Positions 6,587 to 60,919 of a stretch of 64,000 nt of DNA are shown here, in pieces. Location: positions 496,001 through 560,000 of the forward strand of contig OZ237769.1 of NCBI GenBank assembly GCA_965178125.1. Reading direction: 5' to 3'. This stretch comes from Bilabrum cf. latius (Eukaryota). The notes beneath the pieces were generated by a model, which searched no databases, was not told the DNA's origin, and saw only the letters and a list, made by a program, of their open reading frames with translations. Both the position numbers and the translations under genes were made by a program. Numbering within the stretch: the first letter of the stretch is position 1; each line of letters begins with the position of its first letter.

Positions 6587-6663
6587 AATGTTAACAGCAC
6601 GTCACTAAGGTAGTGTTCCGGGCGGCGCTCGCGATTTGCACCCCAAGGCTCCCCTTGCAGGGA

Positions 6664-9419: not shown

Positions 9420-9878
9420 TCACCGGCCGGGCGGCGGCGAGAAGATCCCTCGCACAGACCCGGCCCGGCCATCGGGCCCAGGCGGGCTGAACACCCCAGG
9501 TGCAGTCTGAGGCGCGGCCCCCAGCGCCTCCGCGAAGTGTCTCTGCTCCTTGGGCCTGCTCAGGCTCGTGGCCACGGCCTTGACATACCCCGCGTCCAGC
9601 CCGCTGCCCTTGGCCTCCCCCGCCCTGGCCCTGTGGAAGAACCGCCGGAGCACCTCCTCGGCGGTGTGCCCCTGCATGGGGTGCACCTGGGCCCAGTCCT
9701 GCACGCTCTCGGCGCGGTGCATGCGGTACGCAGACATGCCCCCCTCCTCCTCGTCCTCGTCATCCTCGTCGTCCATGGCCAGGGCAGCCTGCATGAAGGC
9801 CTCCCCGCCCCCGTACATGGCCCCCTACAGAGCAGCCACCTGCTCGTCGGTCTCCGGCATCGGGGCGAACGGACTGCC

Positions 9879-15207: not shown

Positions 15208-15534
15208 AATCAACTACCTGTTCCAGACCTTTCCACGATATATTTACACAGCGAGCTTGGACCCTAACGGACCGAAACTCAAGATTTGTCTGCCCTACCC
15301 GGGCTAGCAAGTATGAATAGTTGCCGAATACCTGAGTTTATCGGGCACTGACCAGCTTGGTTCGAGATTCCAGCCCAAAGTACCAGTCTGCGCAAGCATG
15401 GTTTCGGGCGCCGCGCGTCTTGGAAAAAAGCGGAACTAGCTGGTTCGATTCGCGACGGTTTGGACGAGCACGAAAGGGCGACAAGTAATCGTTGATTTGC
15501 TGCGAATTCGCATCGAATACGCATTTTAAGTATA
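15208..15534. promoter_or_regulatory. Putative bidirectional promoter region between the Rab8-like and NPL4-like genes
   Basis: Divergent starts ~330 bp apart in lower-GC DNA. Confidence 0.45.
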
Positions 15535-29090: not shown

Positions 29091-29124
<34 letters not shown>

Positions 29125-35100: not shown

Positions 35101-38100
35101 CGATTGCTCGAACGACAGGACTGCCGGAGGCTTCGTTCAGGCTGTGGGCCGTCTCGAGAAACATCTCGGCGTGCACTGCCAGGGCCAAGATGCCCGTGCC
35201 TCGACCAAGGGTCTGTCCTGAGGCGAGGGACGAGCAACCAGGCAGCAAAGATGGAAGCGCGGGCGATCCAGAGCCTCTCTCAACTGAGCAAGCAGATCAA
35301 GACCCACCTGCTGCAACAAGGGCAGCAGAGGCCCATTGGGACTCGCTGCTCGCCCAGGAAGCAGCCATGGACCACCGTGGAGTCGTTGGCAGCATCAAGC
35401 AGGTCGTGTCACATTTCCACCTGCCGTCGTGGGCCATGCGACGGAGCGATGCACCAGCACCGTCATCCGCTTCTTCGTCCTCCTCCTCTTACTCGTCGTC
35501 ATCATCCTCGTCAGCAGCTGCAGGCACATCCCACTCCAAGGAGTCTCGCGACTCACCCGTCAAGCAGCCGACTGTGTCCGAGTACATCGCGACCCTCCGC
35601 GGCTTGGACCTGCAGGAGAAGCACCTGCCGGAGGGATTGCCCCCCTCCCTGCGAGGAGACGACGACGGGCAGCCGAAGGCCGTGCCGGTGCTGCTGCTGG
35701 AGGTGCTCGCAGGGGAAGGGAGCGGCAGTGCAGCCGACAGCAAAGGTTTCAGCAGCGCCAAGCTGGCTAAGCCATCGTCTGCTGCATCCTCCAGCACAAG
35801 CACAACCGCAGCAGCAGCGTCAGCGGACCAAGCAGGCACGCTCCAGGCTGGATCCGACCTGGCCATTCTGCAGCGGGCCGCTGCCTCGCTGCCTCCCCAG
35901 GCCTTCGTGCTGCAGGCAGACGATGACGTGGGCCGGGCCGGCGCTGCTGGCATGGCAAAAAGTGACCAGTCCACGGATGGATTGCCACCCGCAGCTCAGG
36001 CAGCGGGCATGACGATCGGATCAGCGGGGCGGGAAGCGGGTGGTCCTCCCGTTGCGGTGTCTCTGTCAACAGCCTGCCTCGAGGAGTTGGGACGGTCAAT
36101 TGCCAGTACTATGGCTGGGGCCGGGGCTGGTGGAAGTGCGATGGTGGGACCAAGTGGCATGTGGAACGTACACCCTGCGCTGCGACCGATGCTTCCGCCC
36201 GGCGGAATCAGTGGGCCTGATTTGGTGCCTGACGTGCCTCGGGGAATCGCGCCTAAGTGCGGCATGCTGCAGTGCTGCTTCGCGGCTCACGTGCCTCTTG
36301 CAGCCAGGTGCGCTGGGGGGACTCTCGCGTCTGCCTCCCCTGGTACCTGGGGCGCATCCAGCCCCCTGGTGCCCCTTGGCATGGGTGTGATCCATCCACT
36401 CGTCACAGGGGAAGACCTGCACGCAATGGGCGAAAGGCTGCTAAGCAGACACCCCGCCTGGGGACGTGGGTGGGGCAGGGTCGGCGTGTATGCGCTGGGC
36501 ACCAGCAGCTCTGCCAGGATCGAGTGCACTGCATGGCCAGTACTCATGCGGCTGCCTGGTCCGCAGAAGCCGGGGAGGGTCGGAGGTGACCTGCGGACCT
36601 CCAACGACCTGAGTGAGCTGGGGCTGGGCGAGGGGCTGGACACGCTGGCAGCGGTGGGCGTGGAGGAGACGAGGGTGAGGAGGAAGCGGGAGGAGAGAGA
36701 GGCAAAGGAGAAGAAGGCCCGAGAGGAGAAGGAGAAGCAGGAGAGAGTGTCGTTGTTCTTCCAGGGGAGCGGGCGGAAGGCGGGTGGGGGGACTAGTTCC
36801 AATTTCGGGTCGTCTGCTTGGTCGGGCAAGGGCGGCTTTCCTAACGGGAGCTCTGGTGGGGGCAGAGGCACGAAGCTTGAGTTGCTGGAAGTGGCGCGGG
36901 CGGCGAAAGCCAAGGCTCTGCGTGGCCTTGCGAAGGAACAAGCCAGGAACCAAGCCAAGGGGCATGAAAGCGGGGCCAAGGCAAAGAGGTCCGATGTGCT
37001 GGGCAAGAGTGACCCCATTGGAGCAGGGGACGCACCCGTGCCACCCCAGGGCGGGGGGCCCGCGGCACCGAGCGGGGCTCAGCCAAGCACTGCATCTACC
37101 AGCAACTGCGACACGGGCAGAGGCGGGGCTACGCCTCCGAAGGATGCGCCCGAGAAATCCGACACGCCGCCCATCGTCCGGCAGAACACAGGCATCGACG
37201 AGAATGCCCTGCAAGAGGTGGGCAAAGTAGACGACAAGTCCAAGCCGCCCGCGAGTGGCACTGCACCGGTGATCAAACCCGTGCTACCCCCTCCCGAGGT
37301 GCGCCCCTCCCCGGGCACAGCCACCAGCAAGAAGCAAGCACCCCCCGCCGCACAGGCCTCCCCCCGTGCTGGCAAAGGTGCTGGGTCACCAGCGAACAAG
37401 ACGTCCCGGAGCGGGGTCGAGAAGACAGCTGCAGCGCCTGCCACCGCCACCGTCGGCAAGCAACCAGGCCCTTTCCTCGGCAGGGGCGACTCACACATGA
37501 AGTTGGGTGCATCGCACGGTGGTGCAGACGGCCCCCCATCTCCCGAGCTCCCCAGCGGCAAAGACTTCAGGCAGAGGCTCCTCCGGTGGATCGGGCATGC
37601 ACGAGGGCGCAGCCAGGGATAGGGAACCAAGCAGGACCGTGCCGCCGCTGTATCCCGGGCCCGCGCCATGATGGAGCACCCGCCCTCCTTCCTCCCTGCA
37701 GAGTCGGGGCACGTGCTGGTCTTCGCGCTGGAGAGGGGAGGTGTGGCGAGTGCGCCTGAGGTCGCCAAGGAGCACCCACAGGAGGAGGCGCCAGCGGGGG
37801 AGACCCAGCGCAAGCCAGCAGCGGTGCTGGGTCGGAAGAGGAGCCGCAGAGGGTCCACACTGGGCCAGACCCGGGCATCGAACGGAGGGCCTGACGGCAG
37901 CACGCACGGGAGTGCCCCCGATGCTGCTACTAGGACGCCCGCATCCTCCGGTGCCTCGGCCGGATCCCCACTGGTGGACCAGAGCGAGGCCGCACTGGCC
38001 CTGCTGGAGGCCCCGCAGGCTTCCCTCGAGGAGTGGGACGGCAGAGGGGGCAAGAAGAGGCAGCGCATCGCAGGGAGTAAAGGCGCAAAATCAGAAGGTC

Positions 38101-41100
38101 GAGACGCATTGAAAGCCGCTGGGGCTGCTGCTGCTTCCACGGGTGCATCGGATTGGGCCCTCCCCTGTCTGGCGGCGGCGGCCCGGGCCGCAGTGGAGGG
38201 TGGGCTGGCCAACGCCCGTGATGGTGTGACGAGCGCCGATGTGACGAGTGATAATGACGTGGAGCACGGCCCTGTTCCTGCAGGCTCCTCTGCGGACTCA
38301 TTCCCGTCCTGGCTGGCGCGGTGCCTGGGCTCCCCCGTGATCAGGCTGGACCCGGTGCCAGCAGTGGGCAAGCGGCCCAAGCCCAAGCCGCAGTCAGAGA
38401 CGGAGACAGGCACAGGGGCTGGGAAGGGCTCCTCGGCAAGCCCCGCAAGCAGCGACGGCGGGCGGTAGTCAGTGGCGGGTGCGGGGCCCAGCAAGACCCC
38501 CGTCGCGGACTGGACCCCCCCGGGCGGGGAGGGCGTGATAGCGTGCGAGCGCGCGTGGGCTTCCATGGGCAAGGAGGAGAAGCAGCTGCTGAGGAAGAGG
38601 AGGGAGGCAGCCGTGATGATGGCCACTGCTGCCGGGCTGCTGGCCCCGCCCTCCGCATCCGCGCCCGCCCCCCTCTCGCAGGGCGCTGGGCTGGGATCGG
38701 GACCGGCGCGTGCCTCCCACTCGCAATCGCCGGGAGGAGCAGGTCCAAGCGGGGGCCCATTCGTTCTCGCGCCGCAAAACGTTCGCCTGTGGCTGGACCT
38801 GGAGGTTGCAACCGCCTGCGAGCTGGTGGCTGCGCTCTGCATGCTGCCAGTCCCCGCCAGCCACGTGAGGCTGGTGCACCTGGAGGGGCATGTCCCCACC
38901 ACGGGGACGAAGCAGCCCAAGGTGTAGGGCAGTGGCACCGTGATGCAGCGCACGGGGGACGGGCCCCCCACGGTGGGGACACCCGTGAGGTGCCCCCTGG
39001 AGATGCACCTGGCACAGCGGGGCATAGACCCGGCCTCGCCCGCCGCCAGGCTGGCTGCCCGCGGCGGCACGGTGGCCGGCAGCGCCAATGACACGTAGCC
39101 GACACCGATTCCATCCTCGTCTCAAGTCGCGCCGGGCCCCCGTCCTCTGGTGCTGCGTGACCTCTTGCCGGCGCCCCCCTTGCCTCAGTCCACAGCTTGG
39201 AGCAAGCCGCCCAAGGCCTGGCAGAACCCGCTGGCGCCTAGAACAGTGTACTTCGAGGTGCTGTCCCGGCCCCGCTGGCAGATCCAGAGGAGGGTCCGTC
39301 TGCCCGTGAGGTACCTGGGCTGGGACGAGGTGTGCCAGGCGTGCTATGAGAGGCACCCCCACTGGGCAAAGGCACTTGAGGACGCGCAAGCAGCGGGAGG
39401 GAATGATGAGGGGGGCACTGAGCAGGCGCTCCCTCCGAGGGTCCAGGGAACAGCGTCCCAGCCCACCAGTCTCCAGGTGAGCCCCGATATCCGTGGTTCA
39501 ATCGATGGCGAGGGCGGGCTGCTGGCAGAGGTCAGGAGGGAGCTGGGCCTGCCTGCCTTCGTGAGGCTGAGAGTGACGGTGCTGGACTGCCTGCAGGACT
39601 CCGCGGGGGTGGGCAAAGCGGCGCTGCAGAAGGCCGCTTCTCTGCACTTCCGCGCGGGTGCGTCGTCCTCGTCCTCGTCGTCTCTACCCTCGCCCACAGG
39701 GGGTGTGGGACAGGGCAGCGGGGCGGGGGCGACCGCCTTTATGCCGTCAGGCGAGACGAAGCAGCAGGCGGAGGCTCGGCTGGGCGTGCCACCGCTGGGG
39801 AAGTGGGGCATCGCGCCAGGTGCCGCGCTGGGGGGCAAGGGTTACTTCGGCTCCGGGTCCTCCGGGGGCGAGGGGTCCGAGCGTGTGCCTCTTGGGGGGC
39901 TATCGGGCGTGCTGCCGGGGCGCGTGACGGTGCTTGAGCTGGCCGAATGGATGCTGCAGCGGAGGAACAAGAGGGCTGGGGGGCACGGGCAGGGCGGGTC
40001 AGCGGGCTGGAAGGGATGGCAGAAATCGTCGATGCTGTCATCGTCTCGCTCGACCGATGCAGCGAACGCACCCTTGAATCGGACCCCTGGCACCTTCACG
40101 TACGAAAAATGGGACGAATACCGCAAGGAGAGGGTGATACAGCCCGGCAGTGCAGAGAACGGCGGGCACGTCGGCATAGGGGTGCAGTTTTCCGCCGAGG
40201 AGGCCATGACTCACGCGCTGGCAGGGCTCAACACCAGGCCCAGGGCCGGTCCTCGGCTGGATCTCCGGGCGAGCACTGATCCGATCCTCAGGGGACACAA
40301 GGCGTAGCTGCAGAGGGCAAGGAGGCTGGCACGCGCACTAGGTATTCGGCCCGGAGATTCAAGCCACAATTCGGGCCACAATTCGGGCCACAGCTTCGGG
40401 CAGCAGCCCCCTGCCAGCGCAGCTGCGGTTGCTGAGGGTGCCGCTGTGGCCGCGGCCAAGGCGTACTACGAAGGAGACAATGCGATGAGTGGTAGTGGTG
40501 TGACGAGTGGGGACTTGTCCAGTCAATGGGCTCGTCTGCTGGAGGAGAGGGTGGCGTACGACGAGGAGGAGTCTCCGGCCGTGAGCGGGACTGGGACCAG
40601 CCCTCCCCACGGTTCAAATGCAGCACAGGGCGTCCGCGCTCCTCCCCTGCCCCCCTCGCTCCCTGCTGCCCACGCCAATAGGCCCAGCGCTGCACCACGC
40701 CGACCCCCCGCACAGTTCAAAGCAGGGCCCTGGGACCAAGAGGCACTGGCTGCGATAGCCCAGGACGTGGATGCGGCAGGGTACCGCAGGCTGCAGGGGG
40801 CTGGGCTGCTGGTGCTGGTGGAGCCCGTGCCCTGGTGGGAGCCGGAGTGCCCCGGGGTGCTGGCACCTGCACCGCCGGCGTGGGCGAGGGCGAGGCAGGA
40901 GTGTCCTGCCGCAGAAGGCGGTCCCAAGACCGAGGGATCGAGCCAGCCTGCCGGCGAGGAGAGGCAGAGCTCAGGGGAGCAATCGGGAGCGGCAGCCATG
41001 GAGGATGAGGAGGGTGACGAGGATAAAGAGAATCGGTCACGTCAAAAGCAGGAAGAGGACGGGGGCCAGGACAAACAGAATGAGCAAGAACAACAGAGGA

Positions 41101-43994
41101 CGAAGGAGGAGGTGGAGGAAGAGGCCGCCGTCAGCGAGATTCTCTCGACCCCCAGGCCTCTTGTTCCCCGGGACCAGCCCTGGTCCTACCTCGCCGACGC
41201 ACTGGAGGGAGAGGCCCTCGAGTGGGTGTGCGTGGGTTGCCCGCCCAAGCCCTCCCACCAGGACGACGACAAGCAGGCGTGGCGCTGGCTGGACCCGGCC
41301 CCTGTCAGCAGGGATGGAGATGGCCAGGACAGCGGCGAGGGGGGCACCTCATTGGTGCAGCCTGCTGAGCTGACCGGATCTCTGCCACCCGTTGGGGATG
41401 GAAAGCGTCTCCACAGGGGGTATCAGCTGGCCAGGCCGGGTCGTGGGCTCAGCGGCAGGGCGGTGCTCGTGCCCGTCAGGCGGGGCGCATCGGCGGGCGA
41501 GGTCGTGGCCTATGCCGCCGCCAGGTTGGGCATCCCTGAGAACCACCTGAGCGGGATCGTGCCGCAGGTGCTGGCAGCGGGTCGGTGTCCCGGGAGCAAG
41601 GAGCAGGACGACGTGCCTGCGCATGTGAGGACGCTCGTGTGGAACGCGCCGGGGGGGCAGCTGGGTCATGGGGCAGCCGGTGAGAGGTCTACCAGCGTTT
41701 CGGAGCAGCGGGGTGGTGGGCAGCGAGACCGTGACGGGGATAGGCCAGGGAACAAGGAGACCATCCGGTCTTGGAGCTCCGGTGGGGATTTAACTGATCG
41801 GCTGCGCGAGCTCCGAGGCGCCTTTGGGCTGCAGCAGCAGGGCGGTGGCCAGGTGTCGCTGGGCGAGCTGAGTCCCATCGACTGGCACGCTGTTCCCTGG
41901 GAGGAGTGCTGGGACGCAGTGGCCCCTCTGGACCCGAGGGCCGCGGTGGATGAGATGCAGGAGCGGGCCGTGCTGCGATAGTGCATCGAGCACATGCGGC
42001 CACGCGAGGCAGAGGACAAAAAGGAGTATGCTGGAAAGCAAGGGGCTACAGCGACCGGCGATGGCAAAGTGGAGCAGACGAAGGGAGCGAGCGGCCAGGC
42101 ACCCGCTGCATTGGGCTAGTCGAGCAGGTGCAGGCAGCAGCCGCCGATGGAGACCGAGGACGGCGACAGTGCCGGCAATGCGGGAGCGATGCACGCCGCG
42201 GCAGACCCTGGCCAAAGCGGACCTAGTGGCCAAAGTCGCTTCGACGTGCTCCACCGCGCTGCTCAGCTTGCAGACCCCATGCAGGCTGGGCCCGCCCTCT
42301 TCTCCCTGTTCCTCACAAAAGAGGAGAAATCGAGGACAGGGGCTGGCACTGGCACTGGCACTAGCGGTGTGCGGGGCTCCACCGGTGGAGAGCCTGCGCC
42401 GGCCTTGCCACCAGAGGCCGCAGGATCTGATATCGGTGCCAGCAGTGGCTCGGGCGACGGCCGAGAGGATATCGTGCCGGTGAACGACCCCGTGAGCGGA
42501 TTCAGGCACGTTCCTCCCATGGGCAGCGACTCGTTCTCCGCCTCGTCCTCGCCGTGGCCTGCTTTTGCCGCCTCCTCCTCGTCTGCTCGCCCGTCCTCGG
42601 GGGAGAAGCTCAAGACCCTTCCGCCTATCGTGCGGTCCCAGCGCAGCTCCGTGGCCAGCCTTATCAGACGGCATGCGCCGAGCGTGCGCTTGCACCGTAC
42701 CAAAGGGATCATCGTTCCAGATCGCTCCGGGGCACAAGCCATGAAGGACCTCAGAGAGAAGCTGGAGGCGGTAGAGCTGCCCAAGGTGCTCCTGGGGTTA
42801 TTCATGCACCCGTCCGCGGCGGAGAAGGAGACCGAAGCCCGCTTCTCCATCGCTGAACTCAAGCACCACTAGAGGGTGAACAGAAACAACTTCCACACCG
42901 AGCCGGACGTGGCCGCTCTGTGGCACGCGGCCGATGTGGGCTGGGAGGATTTCCTCTGCATGCTGCGGGACAGGGGCAGGCGCGGGGCCCCGTGCAAGTC
43001 GCTCGATGAGGTGCTGGAGGAGCACCACACCAAGGGGATGAGCCAGGGTGCCGGGGCGTGGGCCCATGTCCCGTCCGGCTAGAGCGATGTCTTTGGCGCC
43101 TCCGAGGGGGGCAGCAGCACCAGCAAGGGGGCATTTGACGAGCTGCCCGCCCTGGCGCCGCACCGATCCACCGGTGGACGGATGGGGCCCCTCCCGAGCG
43201 GCCCCCATGCGGCAGGCCGGCCTCTCGCCGCGCCTGTGCCCATGCACCACAGCAAGCGCTGGGGCTGGCGGCAGCTGCTGGGCGTGGACAGCGCGGCGGG
43301 CGGGTACCGTGCGCAGATCATCACGGGGCACTCCTAGTCGGGGGGGTCTAGGGCGGGCCACGCCCCCCTGTTGGGGTCAGAGGGTGAGCTGCGGTACGGT
43401 AGCAGGCAGGGTGGCTGCAGTGGTGCTGTGATCGGGGGCCAGCTGTCCAGCGCCAGCGTGAACGTGGCCTCGCGCATGGTGCGGGAGGAGCTGGGCCGGG
43501 GTGTGGCGTGGCCTACCAGGGGTCCTCTGGTCCTGAGCGTGCTGCCTGGCCTGCCAGTGAGTGGTGCGGGGAACACGCAGATCCCCGTGGTGCAGGTCCC
43601 GGTGCTGCTGCTGAGCAGAGTGAGGGAGAGGGAGCCCGTGGCCGACGCGGAGGATCGGATCAGGGATCGGATCAAAGGGCCTCCTCAGGGGGGGTGTGCC
43701 GCTGGGGGTTAGGCTGACATGGAGAGCGACGGTCCCTCGCTGGACAGCAGCGGTATTTCCATGGGGAGTGCTCTGGCTGGTGGTGGTGCCGCTGGCCCCT
43801 TTGAGGATCAGGCCAGTGGTCGGGACTGGCCGGCGCTGCCCGCGTGGTTTGCGGCGGAGGATGAGGGGGCGGTCTTCGAGGCCTTCGCGGGGTGCTCCCG
43901 GGGCCGCATGCAGAAGGCCCCCGAGGTAGCGGGGGGCAAGGGGTGGTCCAGGGGAGGCAGGCAGCACCGGGGGGGCATCACCATCCGCGGGTGA
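27135..43994 (+). CDS. USP7: Giant USP7/UBP12-like deubiquitinase (~5,570 aa): divergent MATH-like domain, UIM, split USP domain, long C-terminal region; exons 27135-27526, 27665-43994; 25 in-frame TAG
   Basis: Cys box GMVGIVNQGATCYLNSVLQ, SFGWDRSDSFTQHDAQEL, LDGPNKYAAGRHGKQAA, PPVLFLQLKRFDYN, His box LHSVMVHRGSATGGHYFAFVRP, WFRFDDSTV, SAYMLVYV. UIM-like EKELQEALQRSMQD; terminal GGITIRG-TGA. All sub-ORFs from 27714 to 43994 share one frame and are separated only by TAG. The 5' exon is less certain. Confidence 0.87.
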
Positions 43995-44467
43995 CTCGGC
44001 TGGATTCATGGTTCGAATGATCGCGTGCTCGTGCAATTCATTACGGCGCACCCGTTTCATTGCCCGCGAAGTTCCGGGCCGACGACTCGGCGCTAGAGCT
44101 CTGCATCCGATCGGATCCTCTGACGTGCCTCACACATCAATGACGAACCAACATGTAGAGATATCTAAATTATTCGTTTGTTCTAGACGAACGACTTGTA
44201 GGCGTACCAATAATAAGGTCGCATTTACCATCGAGTCATGAACTTTAGATCAGATGATAGCCTCCGTGCGCAGAGATCTCTGTAGTCGGCTCTCGAGCGA
44301 AGAGACGATCGCAAGCTTCAGTAGCTGCTGTCCGCGCACCCCTACTTATACAGCTCGCCAAACATCGGGAGCGCTCTACTCCATGTCGCTGGTGAGATAG
44401 TTAATAAGTATTGCGCGTAAATGTACGTAGGCATATCGCAGGGTCGACTTTGGCATGGCTTCAATCA

Positions 44468-46703: not shown

Positions 46704-49700
46704 TCAATCGCGCTTTCTGGGGGACCGCCGCCTAGCCTACGAACTAGAACCTGCCTGCACCGAGCCAGCACCTGTCGGCCCAGCGCCCACGGCTACTGGT
46801 GATGCACCTCCTGTTGGGGCCTCGGCTCCACTGCCAGCAGCCCTCGCCCTCGCTCTCGCTTCCGCCTGAGCCGCAGACCGAATGGGCGTGGCCCTGAGGC
46901 CACCCCTCCGCCCGGCGCTGATGCTGCCAGCAGGCGCATCTCCGCCGTGTCCTGCTGCTTGCCCGTCTCCACCAGTATCAGACCCCTCATCGTGCCCCTC
47001 GCGGGTACCCTCTGCCGCTGATTGCGCACCCGCCATGCTGCGTCCCGCGCTGCCCACGCTCCCTGCCGAAGACCTCCGCCTCCTCCTGCCCCCGGCCGCA
47101 CCTGACCCACCGTCTCCCCCCACGGCCCAGCCGGGTGGCAGCTGCAGCAGCCACTGCTCCAGCCGTGCCTTTGACGTGGTGCCCGGCTCGGCCTGCGGGG
47201 CCTAGCCTGCGCTGGCGGAGGCAGCTGAGGGCGACGAAGAGGAAGAGGAAGAGGAGGAGGTGGAGGCCCCCGCCGCTTCCGCTTGCTTCCTGGCGATTCT
47301 CGCCAGCCGTTTCCTCTCGTTCTCTCTCGCCCTCCTCTCTTGCTTCTTCCTCTTCTTTTCCTATTTTTTGAGCTTCTGCTTCTCCCAGCGCACCCTGTCC
47401 TTCTCTCGCTTCCTCTGCATCTTGGCCCTGTAGGCTTCTAGCTCCTCCCCGCTCAGCTCGGCCTCGATGTCCGCCTTGCGCTTGCGCTTCATGGGTAGGC
47501 TGAGCAGTGGCCCCGTGGACCGCTTCCGTGGAGGCCGCCTGCCAGCTGAGCCCAGCACTGGGGCGGGCGCATCCACGGCTGAAGCGGACTGGGAAGAGGG
47601 CGAAGACGGCGATGAAGGCGCAGCAGATGCACTGGATACACCCTTGCTCTTGCTCTTGTTGGATGATCTCACGTTGCTCTTGCTTGACTCTGAGGATGGT
47701 CTGGCCTCCTGGCCCTTGCTGGCCTTGCTCTTGCTGCCGCTCGATGACTTCTTCTTGCTGCTGCTGCTGCTGCTGCCGCCTGGCGACTTTTTGCTTGATG
47801 CTGCGGCGCTGCTGCTACTTCCCCCTTTCGAAGCCTTCCTGGCTTTCTTCTTCGCAGGTGAGGAGCCGCTTCCACCACCGCTGCTGCCGCTGCTGCTGCT
47901 GGCCCGGCTCCCGCCGCCCGCCGAAGCAGACAACTTCGACTTTGACTTCGATTTCGAGGAGGCTGTAGACGACGAAGGTGGTTCACCTGGAGACTCCGAG
48001 ATCGAACTGGGCCTTGCCCGCTTGCGGCCAACCTACTGCTGCTGCTGCTGCTGCTGCTATTGCGAAGACGAGGGGGAGGCGGACGAGGCCCCACCGGCAG
48101 CCCCTGCCCCTGCGTCCGCTCCGTTCTCGATCACCGAGCCATCCAGGCGGCGCTGGGCACCCCCGCGCCGACCGCCACTCTGCGCGGCGCCTCCCCGGTT
48201 CCGCTTGCGCCTGGACCCCGGTGGCGAGCCCCCGCTCCTCTGCAGCTGTTCCCTCGCGATGCCTCGGGCCTTCCTCTGCTGCGCCTCGGACCAGCCGAGG
48301 GGCCACCCGTCCCGGCCCAGCCTGAACCGGCGGATGACGTCCGGGTGCCACTGTGTTCCCCCGCAGCGGTGGCACAGCCAGTCGCCCTCAAGATCCATCA
48401 CCCTGCCCATGGGATCCACCGCGCTCGTGGGGGTGGTCTTGGTGACCCCCATGCACCTGAAGTGGTACCACTCGTTACACTTGTGGCAGCACACCATCTC
48501 GGAGGAGTCCTGCTCGAACGTGCGGCGGCACAGGCAGTACCGAGCGTTGTCCTCCTCCACCAGCTCCCACGACTCCTCCCCGTTCCCCGACACGCCACCG
48601 GAGTTCCGCACGACCCCGACGTTCCTCCCGGCGGCCTGGGCCAGCCGCAGCGCCTCCTCAGCGGACCCCACCACCACGCCCGACTGCCTCTCCCTCCTCT
48701 CGGGCGTCTCGGCTGCGAGGCTGCTGGGGGGCGCGCTGGGGAGGTCGAGCGCACCCACGCGGGGGCGCTTGCGTTTCGGCTCCGAATCTTCCGATCGATC
48801 GGCGCTGCTGGCCCCCGCGGCGGCACCCCTCGCAGCTGCACCACGGCGCCCGTTCCCCTCGCCACCGCCCCCGCCCTCCATGTCGAACGCGGCCTGCTAA
48901 GAGACAGCCCTGGCCCTGGAGGACGAGGCGCGGCCTGACCCGCTGCGGCGCGGCGAAACTGCACCGGAGACGGCGGCAGAAGCGGAGGCAGACGGGGTTG
49001 CGCTCGCTGCTCCCGCGGACTCGCCCAGCAACGGCCCGGTACCCGCCACGTCGCCCCCCTGCCCAAGCCCCATGGAGGAGCCTGCCGTCGCACTCGCCAC
49101 AGGGGCCGGGGCAGCCAAGCTCCTCTTGCGGGGCCTGCCCACGGGCCGCTTCCGCCCGCGGCTCTCAACTGCAGGTCCGCTCCCGCCGCCCCCCCGCCCC
49201 GGAGACCAGCCCACGCCCCACCTGCCGTTGGCCCCCTGTGTCACCAGCTGCACCTCCTCGTCGTCATCGTCATCATCGTCGTCGGGGAACATAGAGGTCC
49301 CGTGCAGCGCGATCCACCGGGGGGACAGGAGAGTGCGGGACAGGGCCCAGGACAGGCCATTTCCGGTTTCCAGGTGCCGCCCGTACACGGCCAGGGAGCC
49401 GGCCCCGTCCAGACACCTACCAGCCAGCGTGCGCCGGCCCTGCGGCCCCGAAAGCGCGGGGGCTCCCCCGGAGACTCCCCCCGCGCCCGCCCTGGCCCCC
49501 GCCGCCGCCGCGCTTGCCTTCGCCTCTGCCTCCACCTGCCTCCTCCTCCTCTTCTCCTTCCTCCTGAGCGCTCGCACCACGCGCCTGATCCCAGCCCTGG
49601 CCTTCAGCAACCGCCGGCGGGCGCCCTCGCTGACCCCCGCACCGGGGTCCATCGCGCCCCCGCCCGACAGAGGGGTGCCCCGAGCAGCACCGGGCCCGGC

Positions 49701-52700
49701 AGTACCAGCACCAGCACCAGCGCCAGCACCAGACGCACTCCCCACGGGCTCCCCGCCGCCCGCCACGACCAGCCTGTCCAGCGCCGCCAAGAGAACCTTC
49801 TGCTCCCGCTGCACCTGCCGCTCGGCATCTGCCAGGGCGCGCTGCAGTGCAATGTCCGCCGCAGCAGCAGCCTCGTCCTCCGCGCCCCCCATTCCCAGAC
49901 CCGCCCCCGCCCCGCCCACCGTCTTGAGGTGTCCCAGCGCCGCTTCCCCACCCCTGCCCCTGGGCCGCACCCCCGCCAAGTTCCCGTGCAGCTCCAGGCC
50001 GGTCGAGTCGATCCAGGGCTGGTCCCTTCGGCTGGCCCGCCCGCGGCGACCGCCTGCTTCGGGCCTCCACCCTGTGACGAGTGGAGGTCTCCGCCAGCGA
50101 CCACCCGCCCCCGCGTGCCCTGCCTCCTCGGCGGCACGGGCAGCCGCCTCCGCCGCCTCCCTCGCCGCTGCCGCCGCCTGGGCCGCGATGCCCTCCAGCC
50201 TCTCGGCGTCTGCGCTTCCCGCCTCGGCCGCATGCTCGGCCACCTGCATGGCCTGCTGCGCGGATGCCTGGGCCTGCTCCGAGGCGGTCTGTGCCCTGCG
50301 CGCGTCTTTTTCTTTCTTCTTCTTCCTCCTGTCCTCCTGCTTGCGCCAGGCCTCCACCCTCTCCCGCGCCCGCCTGGAAGTGTCCCTCACCTCTTCCTGC
50401 GGGGGCCGGCACTGAGGGCAGAAGACCACCACGTCGTACTGCCCAGCGCGGTGCACGGGTGACAGCGGCGGAAGCGGATCCACCGGTGGATCCCCGCAGC
50501 CCTGGCCGGATGCTGATCCTGATGCTGCAGTCCCGGCCGGAGAGGACGACGACCCGTCCTTGCCCGCACCACCGTGCGCTGCACCCTGCTGTTGGGACGG
50601 CCTCCAGTCCCTGCACTGCAGCCGGGCCTCCAGCCTGCCGAGGAGGTTGACGGCCGCCGCGTCCTCCTTGCTCGGGGGAGGTGCCTTGGGCTTGTTCCCC
50701 GCCACGGGCCCGTCGGGGTCGCTGAGTCCCAGGGCGATGGCCAGCCTTTGCGCGAGGTCCTCCACCTCCCTGTGCGGTGCCTTGGCCAGCTGGGCCAGCC
50801 GGGCGGGGGTGGGGCGCCTGGGGAGCAGCAAGGGGCAGTCCGGGGAGGTAGGAGGAGGGGGGGGAGCAGCAGAGGAAAGGGGGTGGATCCCCACCGGATC
50901 CCCGAGAGATGTCCCCGGGGGTAGATGATCCGCATGAGCCCCTGCCCCTGCCCCTGCCCCTGCCCCTGCCCCTGCCCCAGTCCCTGCCGCCGGCTCTATG
51001 ACCACGAGTCCCCTCTGAATGGCGCACATGGCGTGCACCCACCCCGTGCACCTGCGGAGGGAATGCGACTGCGAGTGCGCACCACCTCCCGCTGCTGTTC
51101 CCTGGCCCTGGGGCCCCGACGCATGGCACGCGCATGGCAGCACCACTCCATGGGCAGACCCGCAAGCCCCGCAAGATCGCCTCGCCAATAGACCCGAGAG
51201 CCACCCGGGCCCGCTTGCCACCTTGCCCTTGTCGTCCTCTTTGGCCTCGCCCTCGAGGCCGAGCAGGAGGGTCAGCCGGTCGGGTGCACCGAACTGCAGG
51301 TCGAGGGGCGGGGGCAGGGCAGCCGTGGAGGCCCCTTCGTTGGCACCGACAGCCACCGCCGCAATAGTAGCCAGCGGCCCCGAGCTCCTACTTCCACCGA
51401 ATGCCAGCGGGCCGTGCCCCTGTGCCCTGGCGTGCACCGCGGCGCACAGCCAGTGCACCCACCTGCCCGAGGGAACAATTTCCCCCTCCAGGCCCCGCAT
51501 GGCAAGGGGCTTGAGCGCACCCCCCCGCACGGGGCACATGGCGCACCTCACGTCCCTCGGCCGATGGGCATGCGCCGGCACCCTGGCCCCTGGCGCCCTC
51601 CTTCTCAGCGCCAGAGGGCCCAGCCCATGAGCGCACGCCTCGCAGAACCAGTCCCCCTCTGGGATGAAGGGGATGCCATAGCACTCCTGGTGCACCGCCA
51701 GGTCGCACGACTCGCAGAACACGATCTGGTTGCGGGGGTGGGACTCGCCCCCGCTGCACACAGCGCAGCATGCGTCCGCGTCCTCCTCCGCCTGCCGCTC
51801 AGCCGCCTCTCTCTCCTCCTGCGCGCGCCTGGCCTGCGCGAACTACCGCTGGGACAGTCTCCGCAGCCGCTCGTGCCGCAGCCCGTCCGCCTCCCTCGCC
51901 GCGGCAATCGCACCCACCCTGGCCGCCGCCAGCGCCAGCCCCCTGTCCGCCCTCACCACTGCCCTGGCGAGGCGCCTCCTCACCACGGCCAGCTCCTCGC
52001 TGATCTCGTCATCGGGCAGGGGATCCACCGGTGGATCGCCCTGCTGCTGCTGCTGCTGCTCGCTGTCGGAGGCTCCCTCGCCCTCACCCCCGCTGCTGCC
52101 GCTGGCATCCATACCCCGCTGGCCCTTGCCCCTGCTGCCCCTCCCCTTCCCCCTCTTGCTCCTCTTGCCCCTCAGTGGCGCCACCCCCTGGCAGATGGCC
52201 CGCTGCACCTCGTCCATCCAGTCCTCTTCCTCCTTCGTCCTCAGCCCGCGGATGAGCGCACGCACCGGGGATAGGGGCAGCAGACGGCCAGCACCGCCAC
52301 CATCGTTGCCCATGGCCCGCTGCCGCGAAACAGACCCGGAGCCGAAAACAGGCGAAGACCGCTTCCCGCCGCTGCCGTTGTTCCCCAGCCCGTCCCTGCT
52401 GGCCCCGATGGCCCTATAGAAGTCGTAGTCCTTCAGGTCCGCACGCATGGGGAAGTACCTTGCCCTGGGCCTGGCCCGCATGCACCGGAGGCCGTGCACC
52501 TTGCGGTAGTAGCCCACTGCCCCCGAGGTGGAGTCCAGCAGGGCCGCCCGCACGCCCAGGCTGGCAGCGTGTCTGCATGCGAGGGCGAACAGGACCGAGC
52601 CGGTCCGTGGCTCGCTGGCCACCAGCCGCATGGCGGGGGGCGCGGGGGGCGCGGGGGACGCGGGCTGTGGCATCGGGTCTGCGGGCACGTCGTGCGCTGT

Positions 52701-55700
52701 GCCGGGAGCGGTGAGGGAGTGCGCAGATGCCCCCGCAATGGGGGCGATGGGGGCGGGCCCCGCCGAGCCTGCTGATGGCTGCTTCGGCGCCCCGACCCCG
52801 GCCTCGGCGGATTCGGAGCCGGATGTAGCCGCGGGTGTCTACACCGAGGGTGTCTGCACGATGGGTGTTGCATCCCCCGCGCCTTGGTGCGTTGCGAGCG
52901 ATAGATGGGATCCTGTGTGACGAGTGTCAGCAGGGGCGGCCACCCGCAGCGGGTCCTGCCCTCCACCGCCCCCGTCGCCCTCACCCCCACCCCCGCTGCT
53001 GCCCCCACCACCACTGGTGTCCAGCAGATCCCCATGCGTGTCCGGTTTAACCGCCTGCAGCGTGGCCACGTAGAGCACCCTCTGGGGCCGGATGCCGGCT
53101 CGGCGGCGGCGGGAGGAAGAAGCAGAGGAGCCGCCCCCTCCCGCCGAGGAGCTGCGGTGGAGGGAGGGCGCACCCGCACCACCGTGCGATGCACCCGCGC
53201 CGTACCCCGGGGGGGACGACCTAAGCATGTCCCCCGGCTCACCGCTTGTTCCCTGCGTGGCGATCTGGGAAGCTCCCGCGAGTGCCGCACTCCCGTCCAC
53301 GGACAGAAGCCGCTGCAGACGGTCTCGCCTCGTGCCCCTGCCCCGGCCCCTGCCCCTGCCGCGCCCCCTGCCCCTGCCGCGGCCTCGTCCACGGCCCCTA
53401 CCTCTGCCTCTGCCTCTACCTCTGCCTCTGCCAGCCGCCGTAGGCACAAAGTCGGCGTCACTGCCGTCTTCGTCCGTGTCGTCCTCCCCCTGGTCTTGCT
53501 CGTCGCCCGACTCAACGATCTTGACGCTGCCGCTGCCGTCACCGTCACCCTCACTGGATGCTGCAGGGGTGCCCGGCTCCAGGGCATCCTCCCCGTCGTC
53601 GTCCTCGTCGTCCTCCCCCCTCCTCGCCCCCGCGCTGCTGCCCGCCGCCACGCCAGCCGCACCCTCAAGCCCCTCCTCCTCGTCCTCCTGCTGCTGCCCC
53701 GCCCTGCGCTTGGCCGCCGCCTCAGCCGCGCGGGCAGCCTCCGCCTCCTCCTCCTGCGGGGGCAGCACCGCCGTCAGCACCGGCACACCACCGTGCGCTG
53801 CACCCTGCACGGGCGCCAGCCCCTCGTCCCTCCCGTCCGGCTGGAACCACATGAGGTAGTAGTTCACGAACCCGACCAGTTTCCCGCCTTTCTCGGCCAC
53901 TAAGGTGAACTCGTTCTTCGCCCGGAGGCTCCTCTGGAAGTCCGCCTCCGTCGCGAAGGAGGGGTTCACCCGGTTCACCAGCAGGAGGGCCTTGGCGTCA
54001 CTCGGTTGGGCGAAGCGGAACGTCGTCCCTCCGCAGATGCCGCGGCGGGCGGCCGCGCGGGCAGAGGCAGCCAGGGCGGGGTTCTGCTCCATATCCGCGG
54101 GGTGGTCCAGCCGGAGGTGAGTGAACTCCTCCCCGCGCCACCACCCCCGGAACAGCAGCGAGGCGTCGCCCAGCGCCGCTGCCGATGCCCTGGCCGTGAT
54201 GGGGGCATGCGCATGGGCATGGGCATGCGCAGAGGCAGGTGCAAGGGGGGTACTGACGGGCTGGGCTCCCTGCTGGGGCTGCTTGTAATGGACAGCTGCA
54301 CCTGTCTGCGTGCCCGTGCCTGCCCCCGGTGTGGGGGCATGGGCCGGGGACCCCAGGGCCGCGCTTCCCATCGCTTGGGCTGCTGCTGCTGCCGTCTGCT
54401 CGGTGGCACCGATTTGGCCGCTGTTCCCCAAGGCCAGTTGGTTGGGAGCTGCGGTGGATACCGCGAGCATAGATGGAGACCCCTGGAGGGGTGACCCCTG
54501 GAGGGGTGACCCCTCCGGGGGGGAGGCCAGGTCGATGATCTCCGGGCTATCTCCTCCCTGCATGGGGGCACGGCCCAGGGAATTCCCCTGGCTCCCACCT
54601 AGCCACCCTCCCATCCGTGGGAAGGACGGCTGCATGGGCGTGGACGGTACTGCCGCAATCGCTGCCTCTACCCGTCCGCCTCCCAATCCCCCAGATGAAG
54701 AAGAAGAGGAGGAAGAGGAGGAGCCGATCTTGGCCCTCAGGTCTTCATCGGCCCACACCTCCTCGTAGAACCTGCCTGCAGGGGGGGTCCTCAGGGCCTC
54801 GTCGGCAGCCAGGGAACAAGGGTCTGACCGAGGCACCTGGAACGGCTCCATGAGCTCCCGCCAGCGGCTGTGCGCAGAGGGCGCCCCCAAGGCGGTGGAC
54901 TGCTTCTTCGGGGCTGCACCATCGCCATCACTGTCGTTCTTGCCCTGACCCACAGTGCTGCCGGAGCCGCGGCTACCGGCGGTCTCCTCGTCTTCGGTAT
55001 CATCGTCGTCGTCGTCATCATCCTCTTCCTCTTCGTCTTCTTCTTCCTCCTCCTCGTTGTCGTCGTCCTCGTCATCGTCCTGCCCACCGCCCTGCTTGCT
55101 GCCCCCCTCGCCCTCGGCCTCGGCCTTGGCTGCAGCTCTCCGCTCCGCTTGCCTCTTCTTCCTTCGCTTCTTCGCAGCTGCCACCGCAGTCGTCAGGTCG
55201 CAGGCAGCCGCGAGCGAGGGCCGCAGCCACGGCTGGGCCTCCTGCAGGATGCGGCGGCGGGCGGCCCTCTTGCCCAGCGAGGGCAGCTCGAGGACCATCC
55301 AGGCGGCCTGCCGCGCCACTTTGGCCAGGTGCGAGGGAAGCGCGCCCACGGCGGAGCGAAGGTTCGTCAGGCATTGTTCGATGCCGCTGCTCGTGGCAGC
55401 CTGGGCCCCGGCTGTCGCTGCGGCACCGCTGCTGCTGTTCTCTGCTCCTTCCTTCTCCTCTCCGACTGTTCCCTGCCCCGGGCCCTCGCTAGCAGGACTC
55501 GTGCTCTCCTGCAGCCATTCAAGGGAGGGCGCCCTGAATGCATCGGCCGAGTCCGGCTGGCTCCATCCCCAGGCCACCCCCTCGGGCGCAAGGGACTGCT
55601 TCATGGCGGATGGCAAGGGGGCGTCTGCGAGCGGCAGCTGCAGGGCGCCCGATCCCGCTCGTAAATCGGGCCCAGATCCACCGGTGGATTGGCGCGACGC

Positions 55701-58700
55701 CCCATCGAGCAGCCGAAGGAACGCGGTCGACTCGATGCTGCGGCTTTCACCCCTGCCGCCTGCTCTTTTTCCAGACCCAGCAGCCCCGCCCTCGCCCTCG
55801 CCCCCCCTGGCAGTCGCAGCAGCAGCTGCAGCCCTGCGCCCCGCCGCCTCGACCCTGGCCAGCAGCTCGGCAGGCTCGCCCCTCCTCCAGGTCCTGTGCT
55901 GCAGCAGTCCAGAGAATGCCTTCTCCACGGCCCCCGCCGCCACAGGCACGAAGTACGGAGCCACGAGGGGCCAAACGTCCTCGGCCTCGCGCGCCTTGAT
56001 GGCAGTTGACAGCATCCTGCCGGCAGAGGAACCCTCTCCCTTCTGCAGGGCAACGGCCTCCTCCCGGGCTTGTTCCCTGCGGCGGCGGCGCGCGGACATG
56101 CGTGCCCTCCGGGCCGTCCTCCGCGCTGCCCTCTCCTGGTCGTCCTCTTCCTCCTCCTGCCCGCCCTCTCTCTCCTCGTCGCCGTCCTCCTCACCCTCCG
56201 GCAGCAGAGGGAGCACACCGCCCATGCCGAGAGGCTGTTCCCCCGTCCACTCCTCCTCACCGTCGCCCCACTCGCCCGCGAAGGGAGCACCCCCGCCCCC
56301 CGCACCGTCCGCACCCCCGTCTTCCCCCACCCCCCCCGAGGGGTCAAGCCCGATACCCGCCCCCCCACCGATGCCACCCCCCTCCTCCTCGTCCCCGCTG
56401 CTGGCCAGCACCGACCCGCCTTCGTCCTCTCCCCCTGCACCCACCCCGCCCCCCTCCATGTCCCCCCCTTCCTCCTCGTCCTCGCTCTCCCCGTTCCCCA
56501 GCCGGAGCCGGATCTCGCGCCGCCGCACCCGCAGCGAGTTCCGCATGGCGCCGCGCACCGCCCGGGCGGCTCTTCTCCGCAGCCGCCCCAGCCTCCTCAT
56601 CTCTCGCACCCTCTCCCGCTCCCTGCCCTTGGCCCTGCGCTGGGCCGCCCGATCTCCGAGGGCCTTGGTGGGGCCGAGTCCAGCACTCGTCACACCACCG
56701 CTAGCGTCCACAATCGGCGCGCTTCCCCGGCTGCTTCCGAGCTAAACGCCTGCACCATCCCCGGCACTATTAGCAGCAGATCCGGCTGCCCCTGCCCCTG
56801 CCCCAGCCCCCGGCCCCAGCCCCTCACCTGGGTCAGCCCCCGCCTGCACCTCCCTCGCCCTCCTGCGACTGGCCCTCTTGTTCCTCCGCTGTTCCCTGTC
56901 CTCTCGACGGGCCGCCACCAGCATCTGCAGCCGCTGGCGATGCACCCTCGCCGCCTCTTTCCTCCTGGCCAGCCGCCTCTCGTCTGCTGCCTGGGCCCGC
57001 ATCACGGCGAGGGGCGGGGGCACCCCCGGGAGCAGGTTGATCTCGGCCTCGTGTTCCCCGACCGCCAGCTGCACGGCCGTGTGGGGGAACACGCGGGGGT
57101 CGTGCCGCCTGCAGTACAGCGCGAAGGACCCCAGGTCGGTTCCTTTCTGCCAGAGGAACCTTCGCTGGAACCCCGCCGCCTGCGCGCAACTGGCGTGCGC
57201 GGCATACCCGCACGCCCGGTACTCGCACTGGGTGATGGCGCCCCTCTGCGTGTGGCACAGCCTGCAGACGTACTGCCACCTCGAGGCATTCACGTCCTCC
57301 ACCCCCTCGATCGGGGTCAGCCGCCTGGGGTCCCCAAAAGATGCCCCAGGGACGTGCAGCCCGCACACCACGTGCGCCCACAGCAGGGGGGGGCTCCGGT
57401 CCGCGGGAACGCCCGTCCTCCCTTGTTCCCTGGCATGTTCCCTGGCCTCCAGCCCGTCCAGTGCGGGCTTCAGATCCTCCGGGGCCACGTACCCGTACTG
57501 GGCGGGCGCCCCGCAGCCGACGGGGTAGGGGGCAGTGGAGGCTCGTGCGGTGGCGGCCAGCATGCTGGTCAGGTCCCTCCAGGGGCGGCCGGCGGGGCGG
57601 GCGCGGCGGGGCCTGGGCAGTGGAAGCGGGGCCTGGGCCTGGGCCTGGGGCGGGTCCGTCCCTCCGGTTGCACTCGTCACACCCGCGCCGGCACCCGAGC
57701 CCCCTTCCTGTTCCTAGTCCCCTCCATCCACCTCTACCACTTCGTCATCCTCGCCCTGTTCCCCGTCGTCGTCCTCACTCTGTTCCCCGTTGTTCCCTCC
57801 CTGCCCGTTAGCGCCCTCGTCGTCTTCGTTTTCCTGCATTGACGCCTGCCCGTTGGACGACGGTGCTTGTGACAATGCTGACGATGACAGTGGCGGCTGG
57901 GCGCCAGTACCAGGGGTCTCCTTCGATTCGCTTGTTCCCTGGTTCGTTGTTCCCTAAAATCCAGCGGGTTGTCCCGGTTGCAGGGTCTGGATGGTGTCCT
58001 CTGGCGTGGGCAGCTTGAGAGGCGTCTTGCGCTTGTACCCTGTCTTTAGCCCACCCCGCCGTCGGCCCCCCCTGCCTCTGCCCCTGCCCCTGCCCCTGCC
58101 ACCCCCAGCAGCGGCCCCCCACCGCATGGAGGCTGCCTTCCTGAGGTCACCGCTCACTGGCTTGAGGGCGCCGCCCTGCCATGGACACAGGCAGCAGTCC
58201 ACCTGCGCAGAGCACAGCCCCGACTTGCAGGGAGCGCACAGCCAGAAGTAGCCCTGCGCCAGCGTCTCACGGCGGTCCAGGGAACCGGTGCCTGCACCAC
58301 CGTGCGATGCACCCGCGCCCGGCTGGGCAGAATGGTCCTGGGCCGCGGCACGGGCCGATGCCCTGTCCGCCCTTCCCTTGCTGTTGCTCCTCCTACTCCC
58401 CCCAGGTGTCCCCGCCAGGCCCAGGCGGTGCGGCCCCAGGTCCTCCTGGGGGGCCCCCGGCTCGCAGGGGACCCCATGCTGGGGAAGGTCGTCGGCGTCC
58501 ACCCTGGGGGTCGATGCCCCCATGAGGGGGGTGGCGCGGACGGCCCACGCGGGGAGGGCCTAAGCACCCCCAACTGTTCCCTGCCTGCTGGTGGGTCGGT
58601 CCGGGGTCGCCAGTGCCCCCCCTTCCCCTGCCGCTGGTCTCCCTGACGCGGCGCTCGAACGCGCGTCTGCGCCGGTGCCCTGGCCCCCAAGCGGTTGCAA

Positions 58701-60919
58701 CCTCCTCCACGCCGCCACCAGCTCAGCGTCCGCCACGCCGTAGCAGCGCTGGTGCACCGCCAGCCCGCACCCAGGGCCTCCGCACACGATGATCGGATCG
58801 TCCGCGAAGGACTCTGCCCGGCCGCACACTTCGCACGCAGGCAGCTGCCCCCCTCGCGCCCTGCCCCTGCCGCCGCCGCCGTTCTGGGGAACAACGGCAC
58901 CGGGGGCGTTGGCCTGGTTCGAGTGTGACCCAGCCACCGGGTCCGTGGGTGCGGCATGACCCGCGGCGGCTCCACCAGCTGCATTGCTGCTGCTGCTGCT
59001 GGTGGTGCTGGTGCTAGCCCCCCCTGATGGCATCCAGAGCACCCTCCGGGCCCTGGCCACCCCCTTCCTGTGACTCACCAGCAGCTCCCCGCCCACCCTC
59101 AGCCTGTCTCTAGAGGTCTGCGGCCCTTCCCTCGGGAGCGATAGCCCGCCCCTCCCCTGCTAGTGCCTGCCCTGCTCCCTCCTCCAGATCCCATCCACGT
59201 CCCAGTCCTGCAGACCGTCCCCCGCGCCCTCGTCGCTCGATGTCATGTCCCCGCAGCTGGAGGCACCACCGTCCACCACGGGACGAAGAGCCGCCGAACC
59301 TTCGCTGGGAGGTGCACCGTGGGATCCCAGTTCCTCCTTGCGGATGGATCCGAGTCCGTTGTTCCCCAGGACGGGCTCCTCCGCGTCCAGCACGCTGTCA
59401 AAGGAAGTGGACGAGTCGTAGGCAGGGCCCCTCACCCTGTGCCCCAGCAGCGTGCCTTGCCGCAGCTCCACACGGCGTCGAAGCAGAGCCAGCCGACGCC
59501 GCTCCATCCGCCCCGACTCTGCCGCAGCCCCCGCTGCCCCCCCAGGACCCCCACCGGCATTGACACCGTCGCCGCCGCCCGAAGTGGCGCCGCTCCTGCT
59601 CCTGCCGCGCCCCCTACCGCGCCCCCTTCCCCTTCCCCTGCCCCTTCCCCTGCCCCTGCCTCGCCCCCTGCCTCTTCGGCCGCGCGTGCTTCCAGTGTCC
59701 GGGCCCGCTGCCGAGCTGGAGGACGAGGAGGAGGCTCCCAGGGCGGAGGAGGCGGCGCTGCTGGACCGTAGCGGGCTGCGGCGCCTGCTGCTGCTGCGCG
59801 AGGTCTCGGGATCGTGTCGGTCCATCCACTGAGGCAGGAGGGACTGGGATGGCTCCGGCTGGGATTGCCCAATTGGCTGCCGCTCCTTTCTCAGTCTGGC
59901 TGCGAGCGGATAGAAATAGATTGTGTGGGAGAGGAGGACAGGAAGAGGGTGGAGAATGCCGAGAGTATGCTTAGAGAATTTCGAGCAAGGCATGATAATT
60001 CGTGGGTACGGAGATTTAGTGCGAACGCGAATCTGCTCGCCAGGAGCCGACCGCAGGGGATGATGCGGTCGCCCCCTGTGCCACTGGCCGGTGCAATTGC
60101 CACGCCACCACCGCAGACCGCACTGGCGCTCCGTTTCGCAAGCTTTTCTTACCGTCTTCCAGAGCAAGCTCTTTATCTAAAATGGACTTGGCTTTGGCTT
60201 TCATTTGGATGGCGAGCTTCGTCACGTCATTGTCGGGGCCATTGTACTCGACACAGTTGGATATGATCTGCTCGAAATCGGCGATTAGCTCCTTCACGCG
60301 GGTGTACTGACCCGCCGACACTTTCTGCGAGTGCGGCATGTAAACATAAATCATGGAAAATATGCGGGGGCCTGAGTTCGGGGCACGGAGCTTGCATGCA
60401 CCGTTTGCTGAGCGTGCCCGGGTGCCACCGAGGCGCAGCTGCATCGGCGGAGAGGCGCCCGCCCCAATGGGAGGCGCAGCGGCTGGCAGAGGCACGCATT
60501 CAACGCGTGCTTTTCGAAGGGAGCGGCGCATGGGAGCTGCATGGAAGCGGCATGCGTGATACGCAATGACGTCACTGGCTGGCTGGGAGTCGCGCGGCGG
60601 CTGACTGCCGCGAGTCCCCGGGGTGCAAGGCGGTTCCTGCCCTCGCTCCTTCGGCGAGGCGAGGGGCCTGATGACGCCCCAGGGAGCGTAGGCGATTGCA
60701 CGAATTACATTGAATACACACACTTGATTGCGGTGCCAAGCGCACTCTCACCTTTCGCATGTCGTCGAAGCACATGGGCTTCGAAATGACCTGGTAGTAG
60801 TCGGGCACTTGAGCCGTATCAACTGGCTGCTGAAAAAAGCTGTAGTAGTCATGCTGAGACAAGCGTGCAATTAGTTTGGGCAGCCTCTCTTGCAGCTGTC
60901 GTGCGGCCAGCGCGCTCAT
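46704..60919 (-). CDS. Giant chromatin reader/writer (~4,510 aa): bromodomain, PZP, GNAT-like acetyltransferase, PZP, PHD; exons 60919-60752, 60324-60153, 59899-46704; 13 in-frame TAG
   Basis: Bromodomain FFQQPVD...VPDYYQVISKPMCFDDMRK|KVSAGQY...IISNCVEYNGPD. BRPF-type PHD [46 protein letters not shown] with C..CP..GGALKP, and a second such module. PHD YCLCRR...MVCCHKCNEWYHFRCMGV...WLCHRC. One frame broken only by TAG; TGA at 46704-46706. Confidence 0.87.

Follow-up and report, generated by a model that had tools for sequence, protein, structure and literature searches.

UAG is probably read as glutamine in GC-rich nuclear DNA of a eukaryote with UGA and probably UAA as stop codons

Introduction

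The nuclear genetic code has rarely changed, and a parting of UAG from UAA is rarer still; each further case adds to what is known of how such codes come about. In the parts of the articles cited here, the nuclear code of Iotanema spirale (Fornicata) is described as using UAG for glutamine and UAA and UGA for termination (PMC5304391), and the assignment of UAG alone to glutamine is also described in phyllopharyngean ciliates, with two origins, and in Protocruzia tuzeti (PMC11687900). Both UAR codons specify glutamine (NCBI table 6) in many ciliates, ulvophycean green algae, Hexamita, Streblomastix and Amoeboaphelidium, again according to the sections drawn on (PMC11687900, PMC2984419). The same sections of two of these sources report UAG as leucine in a rhizarian and as serine in Scotinosphaera, and one ciliate that splits the two stops, with UAA for lysine and UAG for glutamate (PMC11687900, PMC5304391). 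In other codes with only UAG reassigned, a tRNA with a CUA anticodon is stated to read UAG and not UAA, and the stop-recognition motifs of eRF1 are changed (PMC5304391, in part).

Here we analyse a 64-kb stretch of DNA (referred to in its entirety as the window), for which the original prediction had proposed, from TAG codons embedded in a poly-glutamine tract, that TAG is translated as glutamine. Our analysis indicates that the window is very likely nuclear DNA of a GC-rich (~65%) eukaryote in which UAG encodes glutamine and UGA and probably UAA are stops, which corresponds to the code of NCBI table 15.

Results

TAG as a sense codon

The window contains two giant ORFs that would be interrupted were TAG not a sense codon. 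One of these is the USP/UCH-type deubiquitinase ORF (Table 1); the other, on the minus strand at 46704..60200, spans 4498 codons, and its longest piece under the standard code would be 1300 codons. The latter ORF has 14 TAG, no TAA and no TGA in frame. Its two off frames carry 81 TGA, 9 TAA and 25 TAG, a stop load that places an open frame of this length far beyond chance. Taken together, the two giant ORFs (4498 and 5487 codons) contain 39 TAG, no TAA and no internal TGA in frame, and 64 TAG, 27 TAA and 250 TGA in their four off frames summed. Because TAG is not avoided in frame and TAA and TGA are wholly absent from it, both chance and gene decay are ruled out.

This pattern extends over the 14 coding ORF pieces of the window, where 16,103 codons include no TAA, no TGA and 55 TAG, some of which perhaps lie in non-coding ORF margins and one of which (60179) is out of the true frame. 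In addition to the two giant ORFs, TAG is found in frame in the ankyrin, FKBP, importin and Vta1 ORFs. In the aspartic protease a single Pfam match (ORF residues 21–373) covers two TAG codons, so the protease could not be made unless both were read. Based on these observations, we regard it as practically certain that TAG is a sense codon in the window.

No TAG occurs in the 2,177 codons of the six ORF pieces with the highest conservation, namely those for RPL7Ae, EF-hand, Rab, NPL4, choline transporter and ATG27; at the average frequency of TAG in the window, about seven would have been expected. The long low-complexity proteins have approximately one TAG per 250 codons. TAG looks like an avoided, rare codon, and its absence from conserved genes fits a less efficient decoding.

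Both giant single exons (16.5 and 13.2 kb, encoding ~5,400 and ~4,500 residues) are mainly of low complexity, with known domains accounting for less than 10% of their length. Their repeats comprise GR, poly-S, poly-A and poly-E/D stretches as well as GA/GM dipeptides.

Table 1. Positions and strands of the features discussed in the text, numbered from the first letter of the window.
Feature	Position	Strand	Remarks
RPL7Ae	491-1258		no TAG
EF-hand ORF	2599-3276		no TAG
Tandem duplication	3967-6588		unit ~1.31 kb
TAG in aspartic protease domain	7194..7196	+	column motif C-x-Y-x-Q-x-Y-x-E-G-S
TAG in importin-9-like gene	9825..9827	-	relative's ORFs on 4 contigs all end here (4/4 cluster members)
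CAG (Gln) in importin-9-like gene	11232..11234	-	relative's fragment P0249 ends here
Rab	13910-14554		no TAG
NPL4	15496-17202		no TAG
Second poly-Gln tract, FKBP gene	20642..20668	-	(CAG)3 TAG (CAG)4 CAA
Choline transporter	22451-24400		no TAG
USP/UCH-type deubiquitinase ORF	27531..43994	+	5487 codons, 25 in-frame TAG, ends TGA
TAG in USP ORF	43710-43712	+	relative's USP ORF fragment ends exactly here
Ankyrin gene	44408-46519	+	ends TAA
Exon 3, bromodomain/PHD gene	46704..59899	-	13,193 coding bases plus TGA stop at 46704-46706
Poly-Gln tract, bromodomain/PHD gene	48033..48062	-	CAA TAG (CAG)7 TAG; TAG at 48059-48057 and 48035-48033
Exon 2, bromodomain/PHD gene	60153..60324	-	bromodomain second half (Pfam profile 44-82)
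Exon 1, bromodomain/PHD gene	60752..60919	-	probable ATG at 60919; bromodomain first half (Pfam profile 3-44)
ATG27	62072-62854		no TAG
MAP-kinase-like ORF, C-terminal part	63556-63999	-	runs off the end of the window

The poly-glutamine tract and the bromodomain/PHD gene

The tract on which the original prediction was built was described as CAA-TAG-(CAG)7-TAG, in frame on the minus strand, within a gene labelled as Bromo-PHD. Direct reading of the sequence and its placement in the 4498-codon ORF, where it corresponds in frame to residues 4047–4056, confirmed the first of these statements. The label proved correct as well: the Pfam bromodomain (PF00439) is split across two small upstream exons, and the large third exon (coding part 59899-46707), with 13 in-frame TAG, encodes PHD fingers and an ePHD (zf-HC5HC2H), matched by PF00628, PF13831, PF13832 and PF13771. 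The three exons would be joined in frame across GT..AG introns, with the acceptor CAG| preceding position 59899. Of the 14 TAG in the long ORF, 13 belong to the coding sequence of the gene; the remaining one, at 60179, falls within exon 2 in a frame other than the true one. The predicted protein comprises ~4,511 residues, mostly of low complexity, with an N-terminal bromodomain.

The combination of a bromodomain with PHD and zf-HC5HC2H (ePHD) modules resembles chromatin readers of the BRPF/JADE type, which we take to be the nearest family; the likeness is one of Pfam domains only. The protein encoded here differs from that type in its length of ~4,511 residues, in its mainly low-complexity sequence and in the N-terminal position of the bromodomain.

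The bromodomain/PHD gene could also be compared with Logan contigs from two studies (X4 record 1 and X5 record 6), which show no differences in the flanks and covered parts of the gene, with the provision that the window itself may derive from X4. These contigs span the repeat-masked stretch 48027-48122 at the correct length. They look DNA-like; many apparent joints at low-complexity repeats had short sides and were disregarded. An origin of the run by slippage, as originally suggested, is plausible and fits a pure (CAG)7.

Evidence that TAG specifies glutamine

Because interruptions of a CAG run may be missense, the argument from the poly-glutamine tract is by itself suggestive. The proposal that TAG stands for glutamine gained support from further sites, namely a second CAG run that contains TAG, in the FKBP gene, a protease column occupied by glutamine in most homologues, and a CAG at which an ORF fragment of a relative ends. 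No GT..AG pair surrounds the TAG codons of the CAG runs. With TAG counted as glutamine, the window has three glutamine runs of at least five residues, two of which carry TAG. Runs of at least four identical residues are made up of S (18), G (17), A (11), E (5), R (4), D and Q (3 each), K (2) and P (1), and glutamine provides 18 of the 343 residues in runs. We carried out on the window a tally of homopolymers of the kind suggested with the original prediction: among four TAG touching runs of at least three residues, three are at glutamine runs and one is at the end of SSS. Within the window no TAG was found in or at the five poly-E or three poly-D runs, or in the two poly-K runs.

The aspartic protease offers the one strongly conserved column that lies under a TAG (7194-7196). 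Across 82 homologues this column is occupied by Q in 64, V in 10, E in 3, R in 2 and L in 1, with a gap in the remaining 2. Of the 12 nearest homologues, 11 cover the site, and all of these have glutamine. The second TAG of the protease falls in a variable column (K 27, N 8, R 8, T 7 and Q 7 of 82), where the closest relative has V. When the log-likelihood was computed over both columns, glutamine ranked first, 2.7 units above V and ~5 units above E.

The TAG columns of the importin are gapped or variable in distant homologues and hence uninformative, and a PDB search matched importin-9 in residues 548–754 only, away from the TAG sites. No match was obtained in a PDB search with the Vta1 exon. 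The TAG codons of the ankyrin gene fall where the repeats of the protein itself vary, as checked by eye. The glutamine reading, which rests on one strong column and two glutamine runs, is well supported by these comparisons of sequence, and we consider it highly likely that TAG encodes glutamine.

The ankyrin gene lies between the two convergent giant genes and encodes ~15 repeats. Its GC content is 0.54 and its GC3 0.57, as against 0.72–0.89 in the neighbouring genes, and its TAG codons are at residues 229, 360 and 641.

TAA and TGA

For 13 ORFs of the window the end could be read, and these ends comprise 11 TGA, two TAA and no TAG. The TGA ends include those of RPL7Ae and of Rab, which has its C-terminal Cys motif, and UGA is a terminator and not a sense codon. 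The two TAA ends belong to the ankyrin gene and to the EF-hand ORF, the latter of which may end at an intron.

Codons that end in A are used less than their G-ending counterparts, at ratios of 0.17 for CAA/CAG, 0.21 for GAA/GAG, 0.19 for AAA/AAG and 0.22 for TTA/TTG. If TAA were synonymous with TAG, 9–12 in-frame TAA would be expected; none was observed in the 16,103 codons of the 64-kb window. Each giant ORF has TGA at its bounds and gains no length when TAA is read as well, so that the absence of TAA from the two is not circular. UAA appears to have kept its role and probably still ends translation; we judge with good confidence that TAA is not reassigned.

A related species in public assemblies

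ORF fragments of a relative, 68–89% identical to those of the window, are present in public assemblies, several of them metagenomes. Fragments from this relative end exactly at a TAG of the importin-9-like gene and at a TAG of the USP ORF (Table 1). One fragment ends at a position that corresponds to a CAG here. Two other ORF ends of the relative fall opposite AGG (Arg) and ACG (Thr), not Gln, if the alignment is taken without small indels. At USP TAG 4817 the relative shows A. Judging from where its ORFs stop, the relative would share at least two TAG positions with the window, those stops presumably being TAG, and the code is probably common to both.

Scanning of JGI metagenomes with the protease alignment retained 80 loci, with a best identity of 42–43%, and the ORF lengths that alternative codes yield in this set gave no clear signal of TAG as sense. 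A scan of GTDB contigs with the importin alignment found no relative.

Origin of the DNA

The window carries ordinary eukaryotic genes, including those for RPL7Ae, Rab, NPL4, FKBP, Vta1, an importin-9-like protein, a choline transporter, the C-terminus of a MAPK and ATG27. In other assemblies RPL7Ae was found with 99% identity (same species) and with 88% identity (the relative). Among named records it comes closest to Bicosoecida sp. ms1 (60%), to a transcriptome entry for Tiarina (59%) and to diatoms; for the protease the best such matches are Pinguiococcus, Aureococcus and Tribonema (36–37% identity), all of them stramenopiles. A protein atlas search with the choline transporter confirmed the family and gave no useful taxonomy. 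The collections searched contained no close named relative, and the best named matches were stramenopiles at 36–60% identity, which hints weakly at a stramenopile affinity.

Homologues of two of these proteins are also filed at NCBI as "archaeon" records with EON62_ locus tags, namely P0011 (A1 aspartic protease) and P0189 (RPL7Ae), which are 46% and 60% identical, respectively, to the proteins of the window. Both are clearly eukaryotic in an archaeal metagenome bin and probably represent eukaryotic contigs that were mis-binned.

Two further features were noted in the window. The tandem duplication consists of copies that are 87–94% identical in four collinear blocks, and no Pfam domain was found in its ORFs. 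The MAP-kinase-like ORF has an acidic, G/A-rich tail with an internal repeat of 14 residues.

Discussion

Proposed decoding of UAG

The TAG codons within and beside (CAG)7 would be synonymous C-to-T variants of CAG in the poly-glutamine tract of a chromatin protein. By analogy with the UAG-only codes treated in the cited part of PMC5304391, UAG would be decoded by a tRNA-Gln with the anticodon CUA, which would leave UAA unread for lack of wobble, and recognition of UAG by eRF1 would be lost or weakened. ARAGORN identified no tRNA genes in the window, which does not include the eRF1 gene either. As TAG is a rarely used stop, a tRNA with this anticodon could capture UAG and leave UAA untouched.

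Alternative readings

A code of the NCBI table 6 type, in which TAA also specifies glutamine and is nearly absent through GC-rich codon bias, is in our view unlikely. In the known nuclear codes UAA and UAG nearly always change jointly, as stated in the sections used of PMC11687900 and PMC5304391, and TAA would be the rarer synonym at ~80% GC3. Even so, the probability of finding none where 9–12 are expected is ~1e-4 to 1e-5, the off frames of the giant ORFs have 27 TAA and no ORF is lengthened by reading TAA, and the ankyrin ORF terminates in this codon. Very unlikely is a sense TAG that specifies another residue, such as Glu, Leu, Ser, Tyr or Lys, as it does in other lineages. Most TAG are located in unconserved, low-complexity protein, relatives have A (USP) and V (protease) at two of the sites, and interruptions of poly-glutamine may be missense. 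These points are opposed by the protease column, with E in 3, L in 1 and S, Y or K in none of 82 homologues as against Q in 64, by the presence of TAG in two separate CAG runs, and by its absence from five poly-E, 18 poly-S and two poly-K runs, save for the one that ends SSS.

More improbable again is an ambiguous code or programmed read-through, in which TAG would stop some genes and be read elsewhere as glutamine by a near-cognate tRNA, depending on context. The lack of TAG in the six conserved ORF pieces fits the costly codon that such a mechanism implies. On the other hand, TAG is found at none of the 13 ORF ends (a small sample), it is equally frequent in and off frame (39 as compared with 64 in two frames), and 25 read-through events per protein would yield almost no full-length product unless decoding were efficient. 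Close to nil is the probability that TAG escapes translation as such because the genes are decayed pseudogenes, the assembly is in error, tiny in-frame introns remove it or U-to-C RNA editing turns UAG into CAG. Decay would also have produced TGA and TAA, of which there are none as against ~140 expected per frame-equivalent, and an assembly error is opposed by contigs of two studies that are identical base for base (one of them may be the window's source). Tiny introns would not account for the TAG in CAG runs, which have no flanking GT..AG, and the TAG sites appear to be kept in the relative, whose own TAG are assigned from its ORF ends.

Significance and comparison with known codes

A code in which UAG encodes glutamine is itself already known; the window would add a case, apparently of independent origin, from a GC-rich organism that is not a ciliate. 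Tentatively, and with the balance leaning slightly to the other side, we suggest that it represents an independent and undescribed origin of a change of UAG alone to glutamine, in a deep-branching, GC-rich and probably stramenopile lineage with at least two species in environmental assemblies. If true, no such code would have been known before beyond ciliates and metamonads, and this one would have arisen under GC and not AT pressure. In the full texts searched, among which there were few subscription journals, we found no report of UAG as glutamine for any stramenopile, nor for any GC-rich organism other than a ciliate. In practice, annotation of this genome or of its metagenome relatives under the standard code cuts genes at each TAG. 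That such cutting already happens is indicated by the relative, whose ORF fragments in public assemblies stop exactly at TAG sites.

Among the described systems, the ambiguous codes of the Condylostoma/Blastocrithidia type are those in which the reassigned codon also terminates; in the window TAG is found at 0 of 13 ends, a sample in which occasional use of this kind could easily be missed. The rhizarian and Scotinosphaera codes, in the parts of the sources cited, are alike in that UAG alone is reassigned and UAA is a stop; they differ in the residue, as leucine occurs once and serine never among the 82 homologues at the conserved protease column. The UAR code shares with the present case a stop read as glutamine and TAG in glutamine-rich tracts, as far as these sources describe it, but in that code TAA is glutamine as well, and here no TAA occurs in frame in 16,103 codons.

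The phyllopharyngean ciliates and Protocruzia tuzeti, as presented in the cited section of PMC11687900, resemble the window more fully, with UAG assigned to glutamine and UAA not reassigned. In contrast to ciliates, the genes analysed here are long, intron-poor and GC-rich, and RPL7Ae and the protease have their best matches in stramenopiles. Iotanema, to judge from the part of PMC5304391 drawn on, shows the identical change of codon and amino acid, and UAA is apparently kept out of coding sequence there too. As an anaerobic metamonad studied through its transcriptome, Iotanema is unrelated to the present organism, whose DNA has its best named matches in stramenopiles, a GC content of ~65% and TGA as its main stop.
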